Of a DNA stretch of 64,000 bases, positions 12,204-60,755 are shown in pieces. Position 1 is the stretch's first letter, and each line of letters starts with the position of its first letter. The position numbers and the translations under genes are program-made. Source of the DNA: an uncultured Ruminococcus sp. (GTDB lineage: Bacteria; Bacillota; Clostridia; Oscillospirales; Ruminococcaceae); the NCBI GenBank assembly GCA_964617585.1, contig CAZTXS010000007.1, forward strand, positions 11,446 through 75,445, in the 5' to 3' direction. The notes under the pieces are model-generated. The model did not search any database. It had not been told where the DNA came from and saw nothing but the letters and a program-made list of their open reading frames with translations.

Positions 12204-12346
12204 TTCAATAAGAGCTTGCCCGTTATTCAACGCGGCAAGGGTCGGCATTTCCGACCGGCCGGTCAGTAGGGGATTGTATCTCGCTGCTGATCGGCTAATG
12301 AAACCCGCCGCCTATAGAGGCGGGGACATCTTGACTTAGTTATAAT
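12204..12346 (+). repeat. Modular intergenic repeat, copy C1 (L-M1-M2-R); the consensus reads on the + strand
   Basis: TTCAATAAGAGCTTGCCCGTTATTCAACGCGGCAAGGGTCGGCATTTCCGACCGGCCGGTCAGTAGGGGATTGTATCTCGCTGCTGATCGGCTAATGAAACCCGCCGCCTATAGAGGCGGGGACATCTTGACTTAGTTATAAT. It lies between the pyrG stop and its terminator. Confidence 0.9.
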
Positions 12347-12383
12347 TGAATATGCTTTCAAACAACCTGAAGCAGGTATCAAA

Positions 12384-13997
12384 TTACATCTTCTTCTTTG
12401 AAATAAGCGCCGCTTTAATGAACTCTCTGAAAAGCGGATGAGCCTTATTAGGCCTTGATTTGAATTCAGGGTGAAACTGCACGCCCACAAACCATGGGTG
12501 AACGTCTTTAGGAAGCTCAACTATCTCGATAAGCTTATCATCGGGAGAGCTTCCTGCCAAGATTAGGCCCTTGTCCGTAAAGAGCTTTCTGTAGTCATTA
12601 TTGAACTCCCAACGGTGGCGGTGGCGTTCGCTTATCAAATCCTCATCATATGCCAAATAACTTAAAGTTCCGTTTTTAAGCTTGCAGGGATAAAGTCCAA
12701 GGCGCATTGTTCCGCCCTTTTCGGTAATATCCTTCTGCTCGTCCATAATATCAATAACAGGGTGGTCGGTATTTATAAATTCAGAGGAATTTGCATTTTT
12801 CAGTCCCGCAACGTTTCTCGCAAACTCAATAACTGACATCTGCATACCAAGACATATTCCGAACATAGGAATTTTATTTTCCCTTGCATAACGGATAGAC
12901 TCTATCATGCCCTCGATTCCCCTGTCGCCGAAGCCGCCGGGAACTATAATTCCGTCGCAGCCCTCAAGCTTGACTGCAACATTTGAGCTGTCAATGCCCT
13001 CCGACTGAATCCATTTTATTTTAACTTTAGCGCCGTTCTCAAAACCGGCATGTCGAAGTGCTTCGGCAACGGAAAGATAAGCGTCCTCAAGCTCAACATA
13101 TTTTCCGACCAGACCGATAGTTATGTCCTTGTCGGCCGCCTTCTGAACGGCAACCATGTTCTCCCATTCAACCAAATCAGGCTTTCTGTTTTCTATTCCG
13201 AGATGATAGCATACAGCGTCGGCGAGTCCCTCGTTCTCCAGCCACAAAGGCACTTCATAAAGCGAAGGAGCAGTCAGGTTCTGAATAACGTCCTCAGGTC
13301 TAACATTACAGAAAAGCGAAATTTTATTTTTCATATCGTCAGGAATCTCGTATTCGCTTCTAAGCACAAGAACAGACGGCTGAATACCGAGCGACAAAAG
13401 CTCTTTTACCGAGTGCTGAGTAGGCTTGCTTTTCAGTTCCTTAGAGCCTGATATGTAAGGCACAAGGGTAACGTGCAGGAACATAGAGTTTCCTCTGCCC
13501 ACCTCAATACTTGCCTGTCTTAAAGCCTCTAAAAACGGAGTTGACTCAATATCTCCGACAGTTCCGCCGATTTCTGTAATGACAATATCCGAATTAGAAT
13601 CCTTGCCTGCGCTGTAAAGTCTTTCTTTAATTTCATTAGTTATATGAGGAATAACCTGAACAGTACCGCCGAGATAATCCCCGCGGCGTTCTTTGTTAAG
13701 AACGTTCCAATAAACCTTACCGGTGGTGACGTTAGAGTTCACAGACAAATTTTCATCTATAAATCTTTCATAGTGACCGAGGTCGAGATCGGTTTCCGTA
13801 CCGTCGTCTGTAACAAAAACCTCGCCGTGCTGATAAGGCGACATTGTACCGGGGTCGACGTTTATATATGGATCAAACTTTTGAATAGTAACCTTATATC
13901 CCCTGTTTTTAAGAAGTCTGCCGAGCGACGCTGCCGTAATACCTTTTCCCAAACCTGAAACCACTCCGCCGGTAACAAATACATATTTTGTTGGCAT
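12384..13997 (-). CDS. pyrG: CTP synthase (glutamine hydrolysing)
   Basis: [20 protein letters not shown]-terminus and a C-terminal GATase (GICLGMQ, HRHR). The start is set at ATG 13997 (universal PyrG N-terminus) rather than the track start at 14027. Confidence 0.9.
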
Positions 13998-14061
13998 AAT
14001 AAACTTCATGCTCCTTGACGGGAGCATTCCTCCTTTTGCTATGATTTTCTAATTCGCTCAA

Positions 14062-14207
14062 TTCAATAAGGGCTTGCCCGTCATTCAATACGGCAAGGGT
14101 CGGCGCAGTGCCGACCGGCCGTTCAGTAGGGGATTGTATCCAGCTACTGAACGGGTAACGAAATCCGCCGCCTATAGAGGCGGTGGACATTTTGCCTTAG
14201 TTATATT
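14062..14207 (+). repeat. Modular intergenic repeat, copy C2 (L-M1-M2-R); the consensus reads on the + strand
   Basis: TTCAATAAGGGCTTGCCCGTCATTCAATACGGCAAGGGTCGGCGCAGTGCCGACCGGCCGTTCAGTAGGGGATTGTATCCAGCTACTGAACGGGTAACGAAATCCGCCGCCTATAGAGGCGGTGGACATTTTGCCTTAGTTATATT. It lies between the predicted pyrG promoter and pyrG. Confidence 0.9.
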
Positions 14208-14218
14208 ATTCAATTAAT

Positions 14219-14247
14219 ATTCTAACAAATTTCGATTTAAATTGCAA
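14219..14247 (-). promoter_or_regulatory. Predicted sigma-A promoter of pyrG
   Basis: On the reverse strand: TTGCAA (14247..14242), a 17-nt spacer, then TAGAAT (14224..14219). The predicted start site falls about 5 nt before the end of repeat copy C2. Confidence 0.4.
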
Positions 14248-14529
14248 TAGTGTGTTTCTCTAAATTATTTTTAAATTAAAAAAGGAAAGCTCTTTTAAAG
14301 CTTTCCATAAACAAACTTTAATAAATTAGCGCAATACGACGTCAAAAAGGGATAACCCCTTTTTGACAACGCAATGCTCCCCGTCTATAATTTTAAGTGA
14401 TCCCAAAAGGCTCCCTTTATACTTTAAGCGTTAAAAGCCGCAAAAAGTTTCATGGTTTTATATTTTTTGTACAAATGCACAAAAACAGATAAAATATTCT
14501 ATGCAAATTGATAATAAAAGTTATATTTA

Positions 14530-14558
14530 TTGAAGAAAGTTAAAAATTATGGTATAAT
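14530..14558 (+). promoter_or_regulatory. Predicted sigma-A promoter of the prepilin peptidase gene
   Basis: TTGAAG, a 17-nt spacer, then an extended -10 TGgTATAAT. Confidence 0.5.
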
Positions 14559-14589
14559 AAATATATATTTTTAACGGGAGTTGAAACAA

Positions 14590-59595: not shown

Positions 59596-59629
59596 TAAAA
59601 CACCTCTGACTTTGTATTTTATCTTTAAA

Positions 59630-59710
59630 TATAACTAAGGCAAGATGTCCCCCGCCTCTATAGGCGGCGAGTTCCATTACCCGTTGAATGACGGGCAAGC
59701 CCTTATTGAA
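59630..59710 (-). repeat. Modular intergenic repeat, copy C9 (minimal L-R form); the consensus reads on the - strand
   Basis: The reverse strand reads TTCAATAAGGGCTTGCCCGTCATTCAACGGGTAATGGAACTCGCCGCCTATAGAGGCGGGGGACATCTTGCCTTAGTTATA. It is wedged between the Cys T-box terminator and the cysE SD. Confidence 0.9.
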
Positions 59711-59715
59711 CTTCA

Positions 59716-59953
59716 AAACCAAAAAAGCCCCCAAAGCATTTAATGCTAAGGAGGCAGTTTTAACTAAACTGCGGTTCCACTCCGATTTCAACTCAAACCT
59801 TTAACGCAGGATACGTGGACGGATACTTACAGCCGAAATCGGCATTCCCCGCCCAGGCTGGCAGCCGCACTTCACTGTAAACCGCTTGTGCGCTTTCACC
59901 TGCCGCACACTCTCTGAAAAGCTTTATTACAGATACTCTGACTGTTACGCCTT
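59716..59953 (-). promoter_or_regulatory. T-box riboswitch leader, probable Cys specifier (TGC), controlling cysE-cysS
   Basis: The reverse strand carries the AGAGAG and GGTGAAA stem I elements, GAAGTGCG as a candidate specifier, and the T-box sequence AATCGGAGTGGAACCGCAG. The terminator GCCTCCTTAGCATT...AATGCTTTGGGGGC is followed by TTTTTT. Confidence 0.7.
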
Positions 59954-59959
59954 TAAGCT

Positions 59960-59988
59960 ATTATATTCCAAAGTCATTATTTTGTCAA
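59960..59988 (-). promoter_or_regulatory. Predicted sigma-A promoter of the Cys T-box leader
   Basis: On the reverse strand: TTGACA (59988..59983), a 17-nt spacer, then TATAAT (59965..59960). Confidence 0.55.
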
Positions 59989-60003
59989 CATTCAAATACA
60001 ATT

Positions 60004-60570
60004 TTACTTGCTGGAATCGATATATTTCCAATACGCCGCAAGATACTGAATCCCCGAAATTACGGTAAGAAAAGCCGCAATCCAAATCAGAATTTCATTC
60101 AGCCAGAATATATGAAATCCAAGGCCTTCTAAAAACATGATAGCTATAATAGCAATCATTGTGAAAGCCGTTTTAAGCTTTCCCCATATTCCGGCGGGTA
60201 CTACAACGCCCTCGTTTGCAACTACAAGCCTAATGCCTGAAACCATAAATTCTCTTGCAAGTATCAGTATAACTGCAACTGCGTCTACCCACATCGGACT
60301 TTGAGCAAGAAAGCATATAAGAGCGGTTACCACCAAAATTTTATCAGCCAAGGGATCTAAAAATTTACCGAAAGTTGTGACCAGCCCTTGTTTTCTGGCA
60401 ATTTTACCGTCCAGCCAATCGGTAACAGACGCTGCGATAAAAATGAAAAGACCGATAAAAATACAAACGTCGTATCCTGAAAAACAGGACCTGCCCGTAA
60501 GCATCATAGCTGCCACAAAGAACGGTATTAACGCCACTCTTAAAACGGTCAATTTGTTTGGAAGATTCAT
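60004..60570 (-). CDS. pgsA: CDP-diacylglycerol--glycerol-3-phosphate 3-phosphatidyltransferase
   Basis: CDP-alcohol phosphotransferase motif DWLDGKIARK...GKFLDPLADK. About 188 aa with 4 TM helices. Confidence 0.9.
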   Translation of the reverse strand: MNLPNKLTVLRVALIPFFVAAMMLTGRSCFSGYDVCIFIGLFIFIAASVTDWLDGKIARKQGLVTTFGKFLDPLADKILVVTALICFLAQSPMWVDAVAVILILAREFMVSGIRLVVANEGVVVPAGIWGKLKTAFTMIAIIAIMFLEGLGFHIFWLNEILIWIAAFLTVISGIQYLAAYWKYIDSSK

Positions 60571-60609
60571 AATTTTAAAAATTCCTTTCTCAAAGCTGAT
60601 TATAATATT

Positions 60610-60755
60610 TTCAATAAGGGGCAGCGCCCCTTAATCAACAACATTTATAAGCAAAAGCCCTTAGGATTCTATGTAGAAGATTAAATTCTCTGCTGAAAGC
60701 AAAAACGCAACCCGCCGCCTATAGAGTCGGGGGGACATCTTGCTTAAGTTATAAT
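60610..60755 (+). repeat. Variant repeat copy C10 (altered L hairpin, unrelated 70-nt centre, canonical R module); the consensus reads on the + strand
   Basis: TTCAATAAGGGGCAGCGCCCCTTAAT ... GCAACCCGCCGCCTATAGAGTCGGGGGGACATCTTGCTTAAGTTATAAT. The terminal TTATAA contains the stop codon (60751..60749) of the upstream reverse-strand gene. Confidence 0.75.

Follow-up and report, generated by a model that had tools for sequence, protein, structure and literature searches.

The 64-kb window, meaning the whole stretch of DNA analyzed here, comes from an uncultured Ruminococcus-like gut bacterium of the Oscillospiraceae, the host of the repeat family described below. Of the 55 ORFs in the window, 50 had housekeeping Pfam matches. 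About 2.2% of the window is made up of the repeats, with 10 long copies and 5 solo fragments of 24–29 nt. The complete unit is ~141 nt long and consists, in order, of hairpin A with the left end, hairpins B and C, and hairpin D with the right end; the deletion forms are AB-D, A-D, and solo. The copies are as follows.

12204–12344, plus strand: full copy, antisense to pyrG; since it lies after the pyrG stop codon (12384) and before the terminator of this gene (12194–12172, minus strand), it would be transcribed in the pyrG 3' UTR
14062–14205, plus strand: full copy in the pyrG 5' UTR, antisense to pyrG, directly downstream of the conserved pyrG promoter TTGCAA-17-TAGAAT (14247–14219, minus strand)
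19338–19424, plus strand: AB-D form, 5' truncated and without hairpin C, downstream of a tRNA cluster
20904–20930, plus strand: solo, left 23 nt joined to ATAA, sense, between a T-box terminator and the leuA start
23511–23647, minus strand: full copy, antisense to the plus-strand genes on either side
31147–31288, minus strand: full copy upstream of asnB, antisense to its two plus-strand neighbour genes
33249–33276, plus strand: solo, TTTAAT-N17-TATAAT, sense, 62 nt upstream of ORF 33335–34093
34160–34187, plus strand: solo in a convergent spacer, sense relative to the upstream plus-strand gene
36802–36944, minus strand: full copy nearest to the family consensus, between convergent genes, 2 nt past the stop codon of the pheA-like gene 35687–36799 and adjoining a bidirectional terminator
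41535–41677, plus strand: full copy used as reference (A with left end 41535–41570, B 41571–41587, C 41588–41626, D with right end 41627–41677), with an atypical right end, GTTGTTTA; located between truA and DUF5711, both of which run antisense to it
51602–51706, plus strand: AB-D form, 44 nt upstream of the start of the minus-strand gene 51150–51557; hairpin C lost between short direct repeats GACCGG
51911–51938, plus strand: solo, TTCAAT-N17-TATAAT, sense, 167 nt upstream of aroA (52102–53412)
56437–56462, minus strand: solo, left 24 nt only, sense, 47 nt upstream of gene 54814–56391
59630–59710, minus strand: A-D form with hairpins B and C deleted, between a T-box leader (59747–59956) and cysE (58927–59595); the only long-type copy of the window in sense orientation
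60610–60753, plus strand: chimera sharing with the family ~12 nt on the left and, on the right, ~55 nt with hairpin D and the end, but having an unrelated interior; the upstream gene 60749–62605 takes its stop codon (TAA) from the terminal TTA of this copy

The ten long copies and the accompanying short solos had been noted in the original prediction, and all were recovered at these places by BLASTN with its consensus, by nhmmer, and by a covariance model. The six full copies were 85–96% identical to the consensus and 77–90% identical to each other. A 29-nt core had five matches in the window and none in 100 shuffles. All copies are located between ORFs, and the ORFs crossing them are spurious, in agreement with the earlier view of the element as strictly intergenic and non-coding. 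The window repeats are thus a real, dense, non-coding family of ~140-nt four-hairpin units. No match was found in Rfam, even at E ≤10, or in phage, plasmid, and viral collections, and full-text literature searches returned no description. Apparently the family has not been previously described. It belongs to a known class of element, like BOX, REP, and Correia repeats, and does not represent a novel type of system. Independent Logan contigs from this organism (L056, L137, and L138) end inside the element, indicating that the repeats are genuine and not an artefact of one assembly. Copies were also present in at least seven other assemblies, including JAHZHC01, CAZYDW01, CALXWJ01, and the MAG JAJQIJ01. 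An assembly artefact or chance similarity limited to the region, which nothing favors, is refuted by the core matches, the Logan contigs, and these assemblies, and its probability is negligible.

The four hairpins are real, with z-scores versus shuffles of −3.0 as RNA and −4.9 as DNA. Covariation between genomes was seen in the stems of B, C, and D, whose loops are constant (for example, GATTGTA in hairpin C). In a plain MAFFT alignment, both partners had changed in five pairs of hairpin C, and the fraction of paired cells was 96.5%. When 47 copies were aligned to the model, double changes were found in 35 of 47 pairs, and double-change cells numbered 182, versus 57±7 in shuffles and 33–58 in slid controls, although an alignment fitted to the model leans towards the structure. 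Hairpins B to D contained 61 G·U and 67 A·C cells, and the strands did not differ in how well they folded: in 17 of 35 copies, the top strand was the more stable one. Therefore, the structural constraint is not strand-specific, and it fits DNA better than strand-specific RNA.

The conserved left end is TTCAATAAGGGCTTGCC, and the conserved right end is CTTGCCT(T/A)AGTTAT. The TTATA(A/T) reported to follow one end is present, but it is part of the inserted DNA and its last base is variable, placing the true right end at ...AAGTTAT. The claim that terminal inverted repeats are absent was slightly overstated: no clear inverted repeat of ≥10 bp was found in the element, but its ends pair as a weak, gapped one, AATAAGGGC with GCCTTAGTT. 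Hairpins A and D, the two subterminal ones, do not resemble one another. Left flanks are A/T-rich and have no conserved target motif of 4–5 nt; about 30% of them end in TA or TAA. The GC content of the element is 51%–55%, versus 40% for the genome. Variant interiors between family ends occur in L003, L006, L009, and L010, and forms with the ends only or the left end only in L053, L012:3710, L039, and L041; in the mini-forms of L039 and L041, the left end forms a perfect 17–19-bp inverted repeat. The ends are conserved, and the interior is replaceable.

The search of relatives for empty sites proposed with the original prediction was successful for two copies. The site of the 14062 copy is empty in L140 (pyrG 93% identical) and L139 (90%), in both of which the pyrG promoter sequence is the same as in the window as far as the junction. 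The site of the 41535 copy is empty in L145 (truA 83% identical, same gene order), where the truA/DUF5711 spacer is 51 nt long. At both sites the far-side flank has diverged, and the boundaries are good only to 1–10 nt. The 12204 copy is likewise absent from L140, in which the terminator directly follows pyrG. The empty orthologous sites in the closest relatives show that the element was inserted DNA. As originally noted, no target-site duplication was visible, either in the two empty-site comparisons or among 39 flank pairs.

The covariance model detected no copies in the four closest relatives (~72 kb of unique sequence) or in 0.99 Mb around pyrG on 80 other metagenome contigs. On the contrary, copies were abundant in JAJQIJ01, although its pyrG is only 60.5% identical. 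The distribution is therefore patchy, with the family present in very distant genomes and not in the closest relatives. The nearest neighbour of every copy was another copy in its own genome, and mean identity was 76%–91% within genomes versus 58%–68% between them; the copies were amplified separately in each host genome. There was no sign of recent movement in the window, where no two copies are >90% identical. Since the window copies have diverged by 10%–23% from each other, the burst is old, and the element may no longer be moving in this genome.

Insertions are found in A/T-rich spacers inside transcription units, namely 5' UTRs, 3' UTRs, and intra-operon gaps. Between genes of the same direction, 24 copies are antisense and 8 sense, and 9 of the 10 long copies in the window are antisense. 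The gene strand of the window flips four times inside one skew regime, and copy orientation tracks the local gene strand rather than a single replication direction (Fisher test, p ~0.03). Solos, on the contrary, are nearly all in sense orientation (5/5 in the window and 6/7 in other genomes; long versus solo copies in the window, p ~0.002). Some copies provide the stop codon of the upstream gene, and among 27 upstream ORFs, 7 terminate within the first 10 nt of a copy. An RNA-level function would also be compatible with the orientation bias and the conserved loops.

In its modular make-up, the family is closest in style to the streptococcal BOX elements of S. pneumoniae and S. suis (boxA-boxB(n)-boxC). 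Both are modular composites with pairing end modules and optional internal hairpins, occur as lone modules, are ~100–200 nt long and intergenic, are co-transcribed with neighbouring genes, and reside in Firmicutes with ~40% GC. Orientation-dependent effects of BOX on neighbour genes have been reported (Croucher et al. 2011, PMC3049150). However, the sequences showed no similarity (the BOXA1R primer had no match within 3 mismatches), the internal modules are single and not arranged in tandem arrays, the inverted repeats and target duplications reported for BOX are not evident, and the host belongs to another lineage, Oscillospiraceae. REP/BIME elements served by RAYT in Enterobacteria and Pseudomonas are similarly GC-rich extragenic palindromes of high density in an AT-richer genome, make no target duplication, occupy 3' UTRs and gaps between operon genes, and have stems covarying between classes. 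REP units are 20–40 nt long with a conserved 5' GTAG, whereas the family has a ~141-nt unit with four different hairpins and defined ends, and no RAYT was found in the sequence searched. Correia elements (NEMIS) of Neisseria are comparable in length (~100–155 nt), very high density, co-transcription, and internally deleted subtypes. They can supply promoters or processing sites. The 26-bp inverted repeats and TA duplication attributed to them (PMC3049150) are both missing here. The bcr1–bcr18 repeats of the Bacillus cereus group are also Firmicute intergenic repeats with predicted structures backed by compensatory changes, a patchy distribution, insertion polymorphism between close strains, and A/T-rich target sites. 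They are ~100–400 nt long (reportedly described by Økstad in 2004 and Kristoffersen in 2011). bcr1 is set apart by a flanking TTTAT duplication, which was not seen in our family. MIRU of Mycobacterium and RPE of Rickettsia resemble it in intra-operon copies, preferred orientation, and possible overlap with gene ends, as in the stop codons noted above; however, MIRUs are 40–100-nt units arranged in tandem, RPEs are in-frame insertions within genes, and neither has the four-hairpin architecture.

In agreement with the lack of a transposase gene originally noted, Pfam searches revealed no transposase, integrase, or Y1/HUH gene in the window, nor were such genes found among the ORFs flanked by copies. 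Tblastn with IS200 and IS608 TnpA queries gave no match in the window or in element-bearing loci totalling 0.44 Mb, which also contained no multi-copy DNA >250 nt; a longer element with matching ends was not found. The original prediction leaned towards REP/RAYT or IS200/IS605-derived elements, that is, single-stranded DNA movement by a Y1/HUH enzyme, of either a RAYT-served REP/BIME-like repeat or an IS200/IS605 palindrome-associated derivative. Hairpins adjoining both ends with pairing kept through covariation, a non-coding GC-rich body, the lack of target duplication, a merely vestigial inverted repeat, and a structure equal on both strands, so that the constraint could act on DNA, would all suit such movement. 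Nevertheless, we did not retain this preference and regard the mechanism as improbable: hairpins A and D differ, while the left-end and right-end hairpins of IS608 are near-identical; no 4–5-nt target precedes the left end; orientation follows transcription and not replication; the unit is four times the length of REP; and neither TnpA nor TnpB was found in the sequence searched. An ordinary MITE descended from an insertion sequence with a DDE transposase, having degenerated inverted repeats and a target duplication of 0–2 bp or erased, seems equally doubtful. The pairing ends, the perfect inverted repeats of the two mini-forms, the replaceable interiors, and the A/T-rich left flanks often ending in TA or TAA point to it, but the inverted repeat is below the usual 10–15 bp, no duplication was seen at the empty sites or flank pairs, no parent insertion sequence was seen, and four constrained internal hairpins would not be expected.

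A structured cis-acting RNA module used by the host, with mRNA stabilization, marking of a processing site, or transcription attenuation in operons and UTRs as candidate roles, is unlikely. Its hairpins would be kept for that role, with mobility being a mere route of arrival. Consistent with this are the copies within transcription units (both pyrG UTRs and the truA-DUF5711 spacer), the orientation tracking transcription, the opposite biases of long and short forms, and the covarying stems with constant loops; REP/BIME, ERIC, Correia, and BOX are also reported to affect the transcripts carrying them (PMC3049150). However, since the same sites are empty in the closest relatives, no individual copy is needed. 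Moreover, whole related lineages are devoid of the family, copies decay freely via deletion, Rfam gave no match, and no sign of strand specificity is seen in the mismatches of hairpins B to D or in the fold energy.

We consider the family to be, with reasonable probability, non-coding, non-autonomous mobile DNA, falling into the BOX/REP/MITE-like class of interspersed repeats, with modular and palindrome-rich units. A trans-acting enzyme encoded outside the window would recognize the ends and hairpins, which would account for stems remaining paired via compensatory changes with constant loops. The constraint probably acts at the DNA level, given the equal folding of the two strands and the similar frequencies of G·U-type and A·C-type mismatches. 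After insertion, deletions across hairpins, between very short repeats, would produce the AB-D and A-D forms and the ~27-nt solos. Orientation could be filtered by selection on host gene expression, such that intact copies with several hairpins are retained mainly where they run against transcription, while sense insertions survive mostly as stripped-down solos. Insertion at the very end of a gene would be tolerated, since two frames of the antisense end, (N)ATAACT(T)AGG, contain stop codons.

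All ten long copies and the short solos that the original prediction had placed in the window were recovered by BLASTN with its consensus, and nhmmer and a covariance model each returned the identical copy set. Six copies (copies are named here by their start coordinate in the window) are full-length, with 85%–96% identity to that consensus; three long copies carry internal deletions, and copy 60610 has only the two ends in common with the family. The five solos each consist of the 24-nt left end. A 29-nt core gave five matches in the window and none in 100 shuffles, and a general repeat search assigned nearly all repeated DNA of the window to this family. 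Every copy lies between ORFs, consistent with the earlier description of the element as strictly intergenic. The GC content of the copies is 51%–55% versus 40.5% for the window. In total the family accounts for about 1.4 kb (2.2%) of the window, with approximately one copy per 4 kb and about a quarter of the spacers filled, a density that is among the denser bacterial repeat loads. Three Logan contigs of the same organism (L056, L137, and L138) are 100% identical to the window and terminate inside the element, which is the behavior expected of short-read contigs at true repeats.

Pfam searches assigned ordinary housekeeping functions to 50 of the 55 ORFs of the window, including polC, pyrG, pyrH, frr, leuA, asnB, ruvABC, truA, and cysS, and none of these ORFs encodes a transposase, as predicted, or an integrase. 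The ORF at 33335-34093 (+) gave weak Pfam matches to Plasmodium Rifin and Stevor and is flanked on either side by solos 33249 and 34160. T-box leaders and a PolC-type polymerase are present in the window. The nearest named proteins belong to MAGs labelled 'Ruminococcus sp.' or 'Oscillospiraceae bacterium' (82%–83% identity for pyrG and 62%–67% for TruA); the host is thus a Ruminococcus-like, uncultured bacterium of the family Oscillospiraceae. SRR10165008 was the only sequencing run to give exact protein matches.

The anatomy of the element was determined from alignments (A1–A3) and folds, with copy 41535 as the reference. The unit is about 141 nt long and consists of four differing hairpins between defined ends.

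Modules of copy 41535 and deletion forms in the window
Left end and hairpin A: TTCAATAAGGG-CTTGCCCG-tcattcaa-CGCGGCAAG
Hairpin B: GGTCGGC-att-GCCGACC
Hairpin C: long stem with the loop GATTGTA
Hairpin D and right end: CCGCCGCC-tatag-AGGCGGGG, then ACATCTTGCCTTAGTTAT
AB-D form, copies 19338 and 51602: C lost between GACCGG repeats
A-D form, copy 59630: B and C lost
Solos: left 24 nt joined to ATA

Between the left end and the start of hairpin A are 12 nt, and about 22 nt separate hairpin D from the right end. The end sequences, TTCAATAAGGGCTTGCC and CTTGCCTWAGTTAT, can pair AATAAGGGC with GCCTTAGTT, forming a helix that includes two G·T pairs and one mismatch or bulge and closes the whole unit; the terminal helices are 73%–96% paired across 47 copies. 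The paired ends are a weak, gapped inverted repeat. The trailing TTATA of the original prediction was retained in part, since TTAT is the end of the element and the final base varies (A, T, or G), so that the element ends in ...AAGTTAT.

The ABCD, AB-D, A-D, and solo forms occur in the window, and other genomes contain the same range. In addition, other genomes carry end-only minis (L053 and L012:3710) and perfect palindromic minis of about 47 nt, each a left end fused to its reverse complement (TTCAATAAGGGCTTGCC...GGCAAGCCCTTATTGAA; L039:1897-1943 and L041:3028-3075), in which the left end forms a perfect 17–19-bp inverted repeat. Some copies in other genomes have different interiors. Since the ends are kept while the interiors are replaceable, comparison of these sequences suggests that the ends are what would be recognized. 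The solo junction GT(C/T)ATT/ATA is recurrent in the window and in JAJQIJ01, in each case with the diagnostic base of its own genome.

The repeat is inserted DNA that has been amplified within genomes, is patchily distributed, and decays by deletion. Empty sites, proposed earlier as a check, were found in three close relatives (L139, L140, and L145) by exact-protein and homologue look-ups. The site of copy 14062 is empty in L140 (pyrG 93% identical) and L139 (90%), and the pyrG promoter region is common up to the element boundary: L140 reads ...GTTAGAATATTAAATGAGTA/TTGATATATG, and the window reads ...GTTAGAATATTAATTGAATAA, then the element (TATAAC...CTTATTGAA), then TTGAGCG. This comparison places copy 14062 in the 5' UTR of pyrG, just 3' of the conserved promoter TTGCAA-17-TAGAAT. 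L145 has the same gene order, RuvB-CbiQ-TruA-DUF5711-CvpA-Clp, with a truA/DUF5711 spacer of 51 nt; in the window this spacer consists of 13 nt, copy 41535, and 44 nt. Copy 12204 is flanked by the stop codon of pyrG and the terminator of this gene; L140 has a terminator at that position and no element. The best match of a metagenome scan with pyrG for empty sites was 77% identical and not syntenic. The leader of pyrG carries a hairpin, ATGCTCC...GGAGCAT (14008-14027), just before the likely start at 13997, and the leader region exceeds that of L140, which has no such hairpin, by about 38 nt. The repeat insertion seems to have come together with this leader remodelling.

Filled and empty sites could be reconciled without a direct repeat, in agreement with the predicted absence of target-site duplication, and the flanks of 39 copies had no direct repeat in common, only A/T richness. 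TGAAT or TTCAAT was rejected as a target duplication since it lies near both empty-site junctions and is not found at other copies. Solos were likewise rejected as pre-existing targets of a 115-nt insert, since the empty sites of the relatives contain neither the solo nor the long form. Insertion beside terminators was also considered, and the asymmetry of strong hairpins (9 left versus 6 right flanks) was unconvincing. A different duplication, a perfect 29-nt direct repeat at 19839-19867 and 20023-20051, comprises 18 nt from the 3' end of tRNA-Thr (20034-20109, minus strand) with the 11 nt that follow, found again about 155 nt further on. It resembles the att-type duplication that an integrative element once targeting tRNA-Thr would leave.

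Searched with the left-end pattern, species-representative genomes yielded at least 55 loci. Among the matches listed, true copies are numerous in several MAGs, namely JAJQIJ01 ('Clostridiales bacterium U.9_6'), JAHZHC01 ('Ruminococcus sp. HRGM_Genome_3219'), CAZYDW01, CALXWJ01, and a few others. The family is present in other genomes and so is not confined to the region of the window, a point that the original prediction had left to be checked. CAZYDW01 (L005, L012, and L021) is a MAG labelled 'uncultured Bacteroides sp.' that holds full copies of an otherwise clostridial family; either its label or binning may be wrong, or the host range of the family may be wider. The remaining left-end pattern matches are due to chance, several of them inside one conserved gene. 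The 19-nt left-end pattern occurs in a membrane-protein gene (L001, L006, L018, L024, and others), where its reverse complement encodes GGQALIE, and such chance matches inflate naive genome-wide motif counts.

The nearest neighbor of every copy is a copy in its own genome. Mean identity within genomes is 84% in the window, 91% in JAHZHC01, and 76% in JAJQIJ01, and between genomes it is 58%–68%, which together indicate separate amplification in each genome. The position downstream of pyrG shared by copies in the window and in L025 was rejected as evidence of orthology, since copies group by their own genome and spacer occupancy allows coincidence. JAJQIJ01 is full of copies although its pyrG is only 60.5% identical to that of the window. 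Model searches covered about 72 kb of unique sequence of the four closest relatives (pyrG 82%–93% identical) and, from 80 other metagenome contigs, 0.99 Mb surrounding pyrG; neither set contained a copy. Since it is missing in the nearest relatives and abundant at 60% pyrG identity, the family could mark horizontal spread among uncultured gut Oscillospiraceae. A phage or plasmid origin was rejected, as a scan of viral contigs and BLASTN against plasmids and phages gave no match to the family. Window copies are 10%–23% diverged from one another; therefore, the burst in the window is old, and its enzyme may have been lost. JAJQIJ01 and JAHZHC01, where identity between copies reaches 94%, are better genomes in which to seek it.

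The hairpins are under structural constraint. When copies from the window and JAHZHC01 were aligned plainly with MAFFT, 96.5% of the cells of hairpin C were paired, and both partners had changed in five of its pairs. RNAalifold was applied to a plain MAFFT alignment of 30 copies, in which the stems were misaligned by subfamily indels, and a hand-drawn structure and a covariance model were used. Across 47 model-aligned copies, pairing is kept in 84% of cells, double changes occur in 35 of 47 pairs, and there are 182 double-change cells versus 57±7 in shuffled data and 33–58 with slid partners, although these figures lean towards structure because the alignment was fitted to it. In the unfitted alignment A2, stem swaps of hairpin B are visible by eye (GTCGGC/GCCGAC, GTTGAC/GTCAAC, and GACAGC/GCTGTC). 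The hairpin loops remain constant while the stems swap.

Compensatory changes that keep the helices are a feature shared with strand-specific structured RNAs. Unlike in such RNAs, G·U pairs are not favored over A·C in hairpins B to D (61 versus 67 cells), and the G·U excess is limited to nearly fixed positions of the terminal helix and hairpin A. Neither strand folds better, with energies of -52.3 and -51.0 kcal/mol and the top strand more stable in 17 of 35 copies. These two properties show that the constraint is not strand-specific. Moreover, the repeat is not kept at orthologous positions, which are empty in L139, L140, and L145. A known RNA family was rejected, since the Rfam check proposed earlier gave no match to the repeat: Rfam 15 at the gathering threshold returned only two T-box leaders and three tRNAs for the whole window, and a search at E<=10 with copy 41535 and its flanks returned nothing. 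The strand symmetry of the constraint suggests that folded or palindromic DNA is recognized during copying of the element, rather than an RNA being maintained at each locus.

Long copies located between genes of the same direction are antisense in 24 cases and sense in 8. Nine of the 10 in the window have the antisense orientation relative to local transcription; the gene strand changes four times, and the copies flip with it. The association of element strand with block strand has a Fisher p of about 0.03 in a small sample. GC skew indicates a single replication regime with an overlaid coding-strand skew. Since the copies flip within one skew regime, the orientation bias tracks transcription, not replication. 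Solos have the sense orientation (all five in the window and, among seven short forms from elsewhere, six), and the difference in orientation between long copies and solos in the window has a p of about 0.002. Several solos contain TTCAAT-N17-TATAAT, with a weak -35-like hexamer, 47–167 nt upstream of start codons, and a promoter scan made no call for solo 20904, the sole solo within the region scanned. The contrast between intact antisense copies and sense stubs suggests a strong effect on gene expression. A candidate explanation of the orientation bias is that hairpin D on the sense strand acts as an intrinsic terminator, but, apart from JAJQIJ-type copies and copy 14062, no convincing U-rich tail follows it. 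Short sense forms were also observed at the T-box leaders at 20497-20736 (+), before leuA, and 59747-59956 (-), before cysE-cysS: the gap between terminator and start contains solo 20904 at leuA and the A-D copy 59630 at cysE-cysS.

The stop codon of the upstream ORF is the TAA at bases 3–5 of the (N)ATAAC end in 5 of 27 cases, which are independent and have the same 5-nt overlap: the window ORF 60749-62605 (-) and the loci L025, L027, L040, and L020:6457, the pyrG of JAJQIJ01 being included. In two further cases of the 27, the stop is at element bases 8–10. Thus, insertion is frequently at the final codons of a gene, whose stop the element then provides.

Literature searches found no published description of this repeat. 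It is a dense and well-delimited new family in the familiar class that includes REP/BIME, BOX, RUP, Correia, ERIC, and bcr elements. Like classical MITEs derived from DDE transposons, it is small, non-coding, multi-copy, and intergenic. However, classical MITEs have terminal inverted repeats of at least 10–15 bp and a target duplication of 2–10 bp; here the ends are weakly paired and gapped, with perfect 17–19-bp repeats in the minis of L039 and L041, and the duplication is absent. No parent insertion sequence with the same ends was found in the window or in 0.44 Mb of carrier loci. A left-end/right-end pair 1.1 kb apart in L024 was a chance match within a sensor-kinase gene, and other pattern matches considered as a parent were GGQALIE codons in the conserved membrane protein. 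The original prediction described the element accurately, but its lean towards REP/RAYT or IS200/IS605 derivatives is unsupported, with unit size, target motif, end hairpins, and orientation against it. REP is an imperfect palindrome of 20–40 nt with a 5' GTAG, whereas the unit described here has about 141 nt and four hairpins. IS200/IS605 derivatives resemble it in having hairpins beside both ends and no target duplication. Unlike them, the repeat has no conserved 4–5-nt target (positions -10 to -1 are only A/T-rich), and its orientation is not tied to replication direction. In addition, their end hairpins are alike and served by one TnpA, while hairpins A (CTTGCCCG...CGCGGCAAG) and D (CCGCCGCC...GGCGGGGG) differ. 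The closest resemblance in modular make-up, with optional internal modules and lone modules, is to the streptococcal BOX elements. The latter are reported to have inverted repeats and target duplications (PMC3049150), in contrast to the weak gapped pairing and lack of duplication found here, and the only BOX sequence tried, the BOXA1R primer, gave no match.

No Y1 transposase was detected in the carrier loci by tblastn with IS200 and IS608 TnpA queries, and the window contains no RAYT (Y1 HUH) gene flanked by repeats. ORFs bracketed by copies encode Fic, barstar, ZapA, HTH, Mn-catalase, and similar proteins and include no mobilizing enzyme. A search for the enzyme through multi-copy DNA among the loci found none, and longer elements with the same ends were not found among them. 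The combination of no clear inverted repeat, no duplication, and four constrained hairpins points to a mobilizing enzyme yet to be found in Firmicutes. Such an enzyme would act in trans and recognize the ends and hairpins of the element, and selection on host transcripts would explain the contrast of orientation and size. A fuller joint reading, which we consider improbable as a whole, is that a RAYT-like or other non-DDE enzyme, undescribed in Clostridia, would recognize DNA by its fold and not by inverted-repeat ends; its recognition code would be the four hairpins, whose stems covary and whose loops are constant; the family would have jumped between distant gut lineages; and an orientation-specific effect of the intact form on transcripts would leave sense insertions only as promoter-like stubs of about 27 nt.

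For assembly and annotation, the element breaks short-read contigs of this organism, makes spurious ORFs, and gives real genes their stop codons. For the biology of the family, three points are worth following: the enzyme that mobilizes it, its apparent passage between gut lineages that are only distantly related, and the contrast of intact antisense copies with sense stubs.
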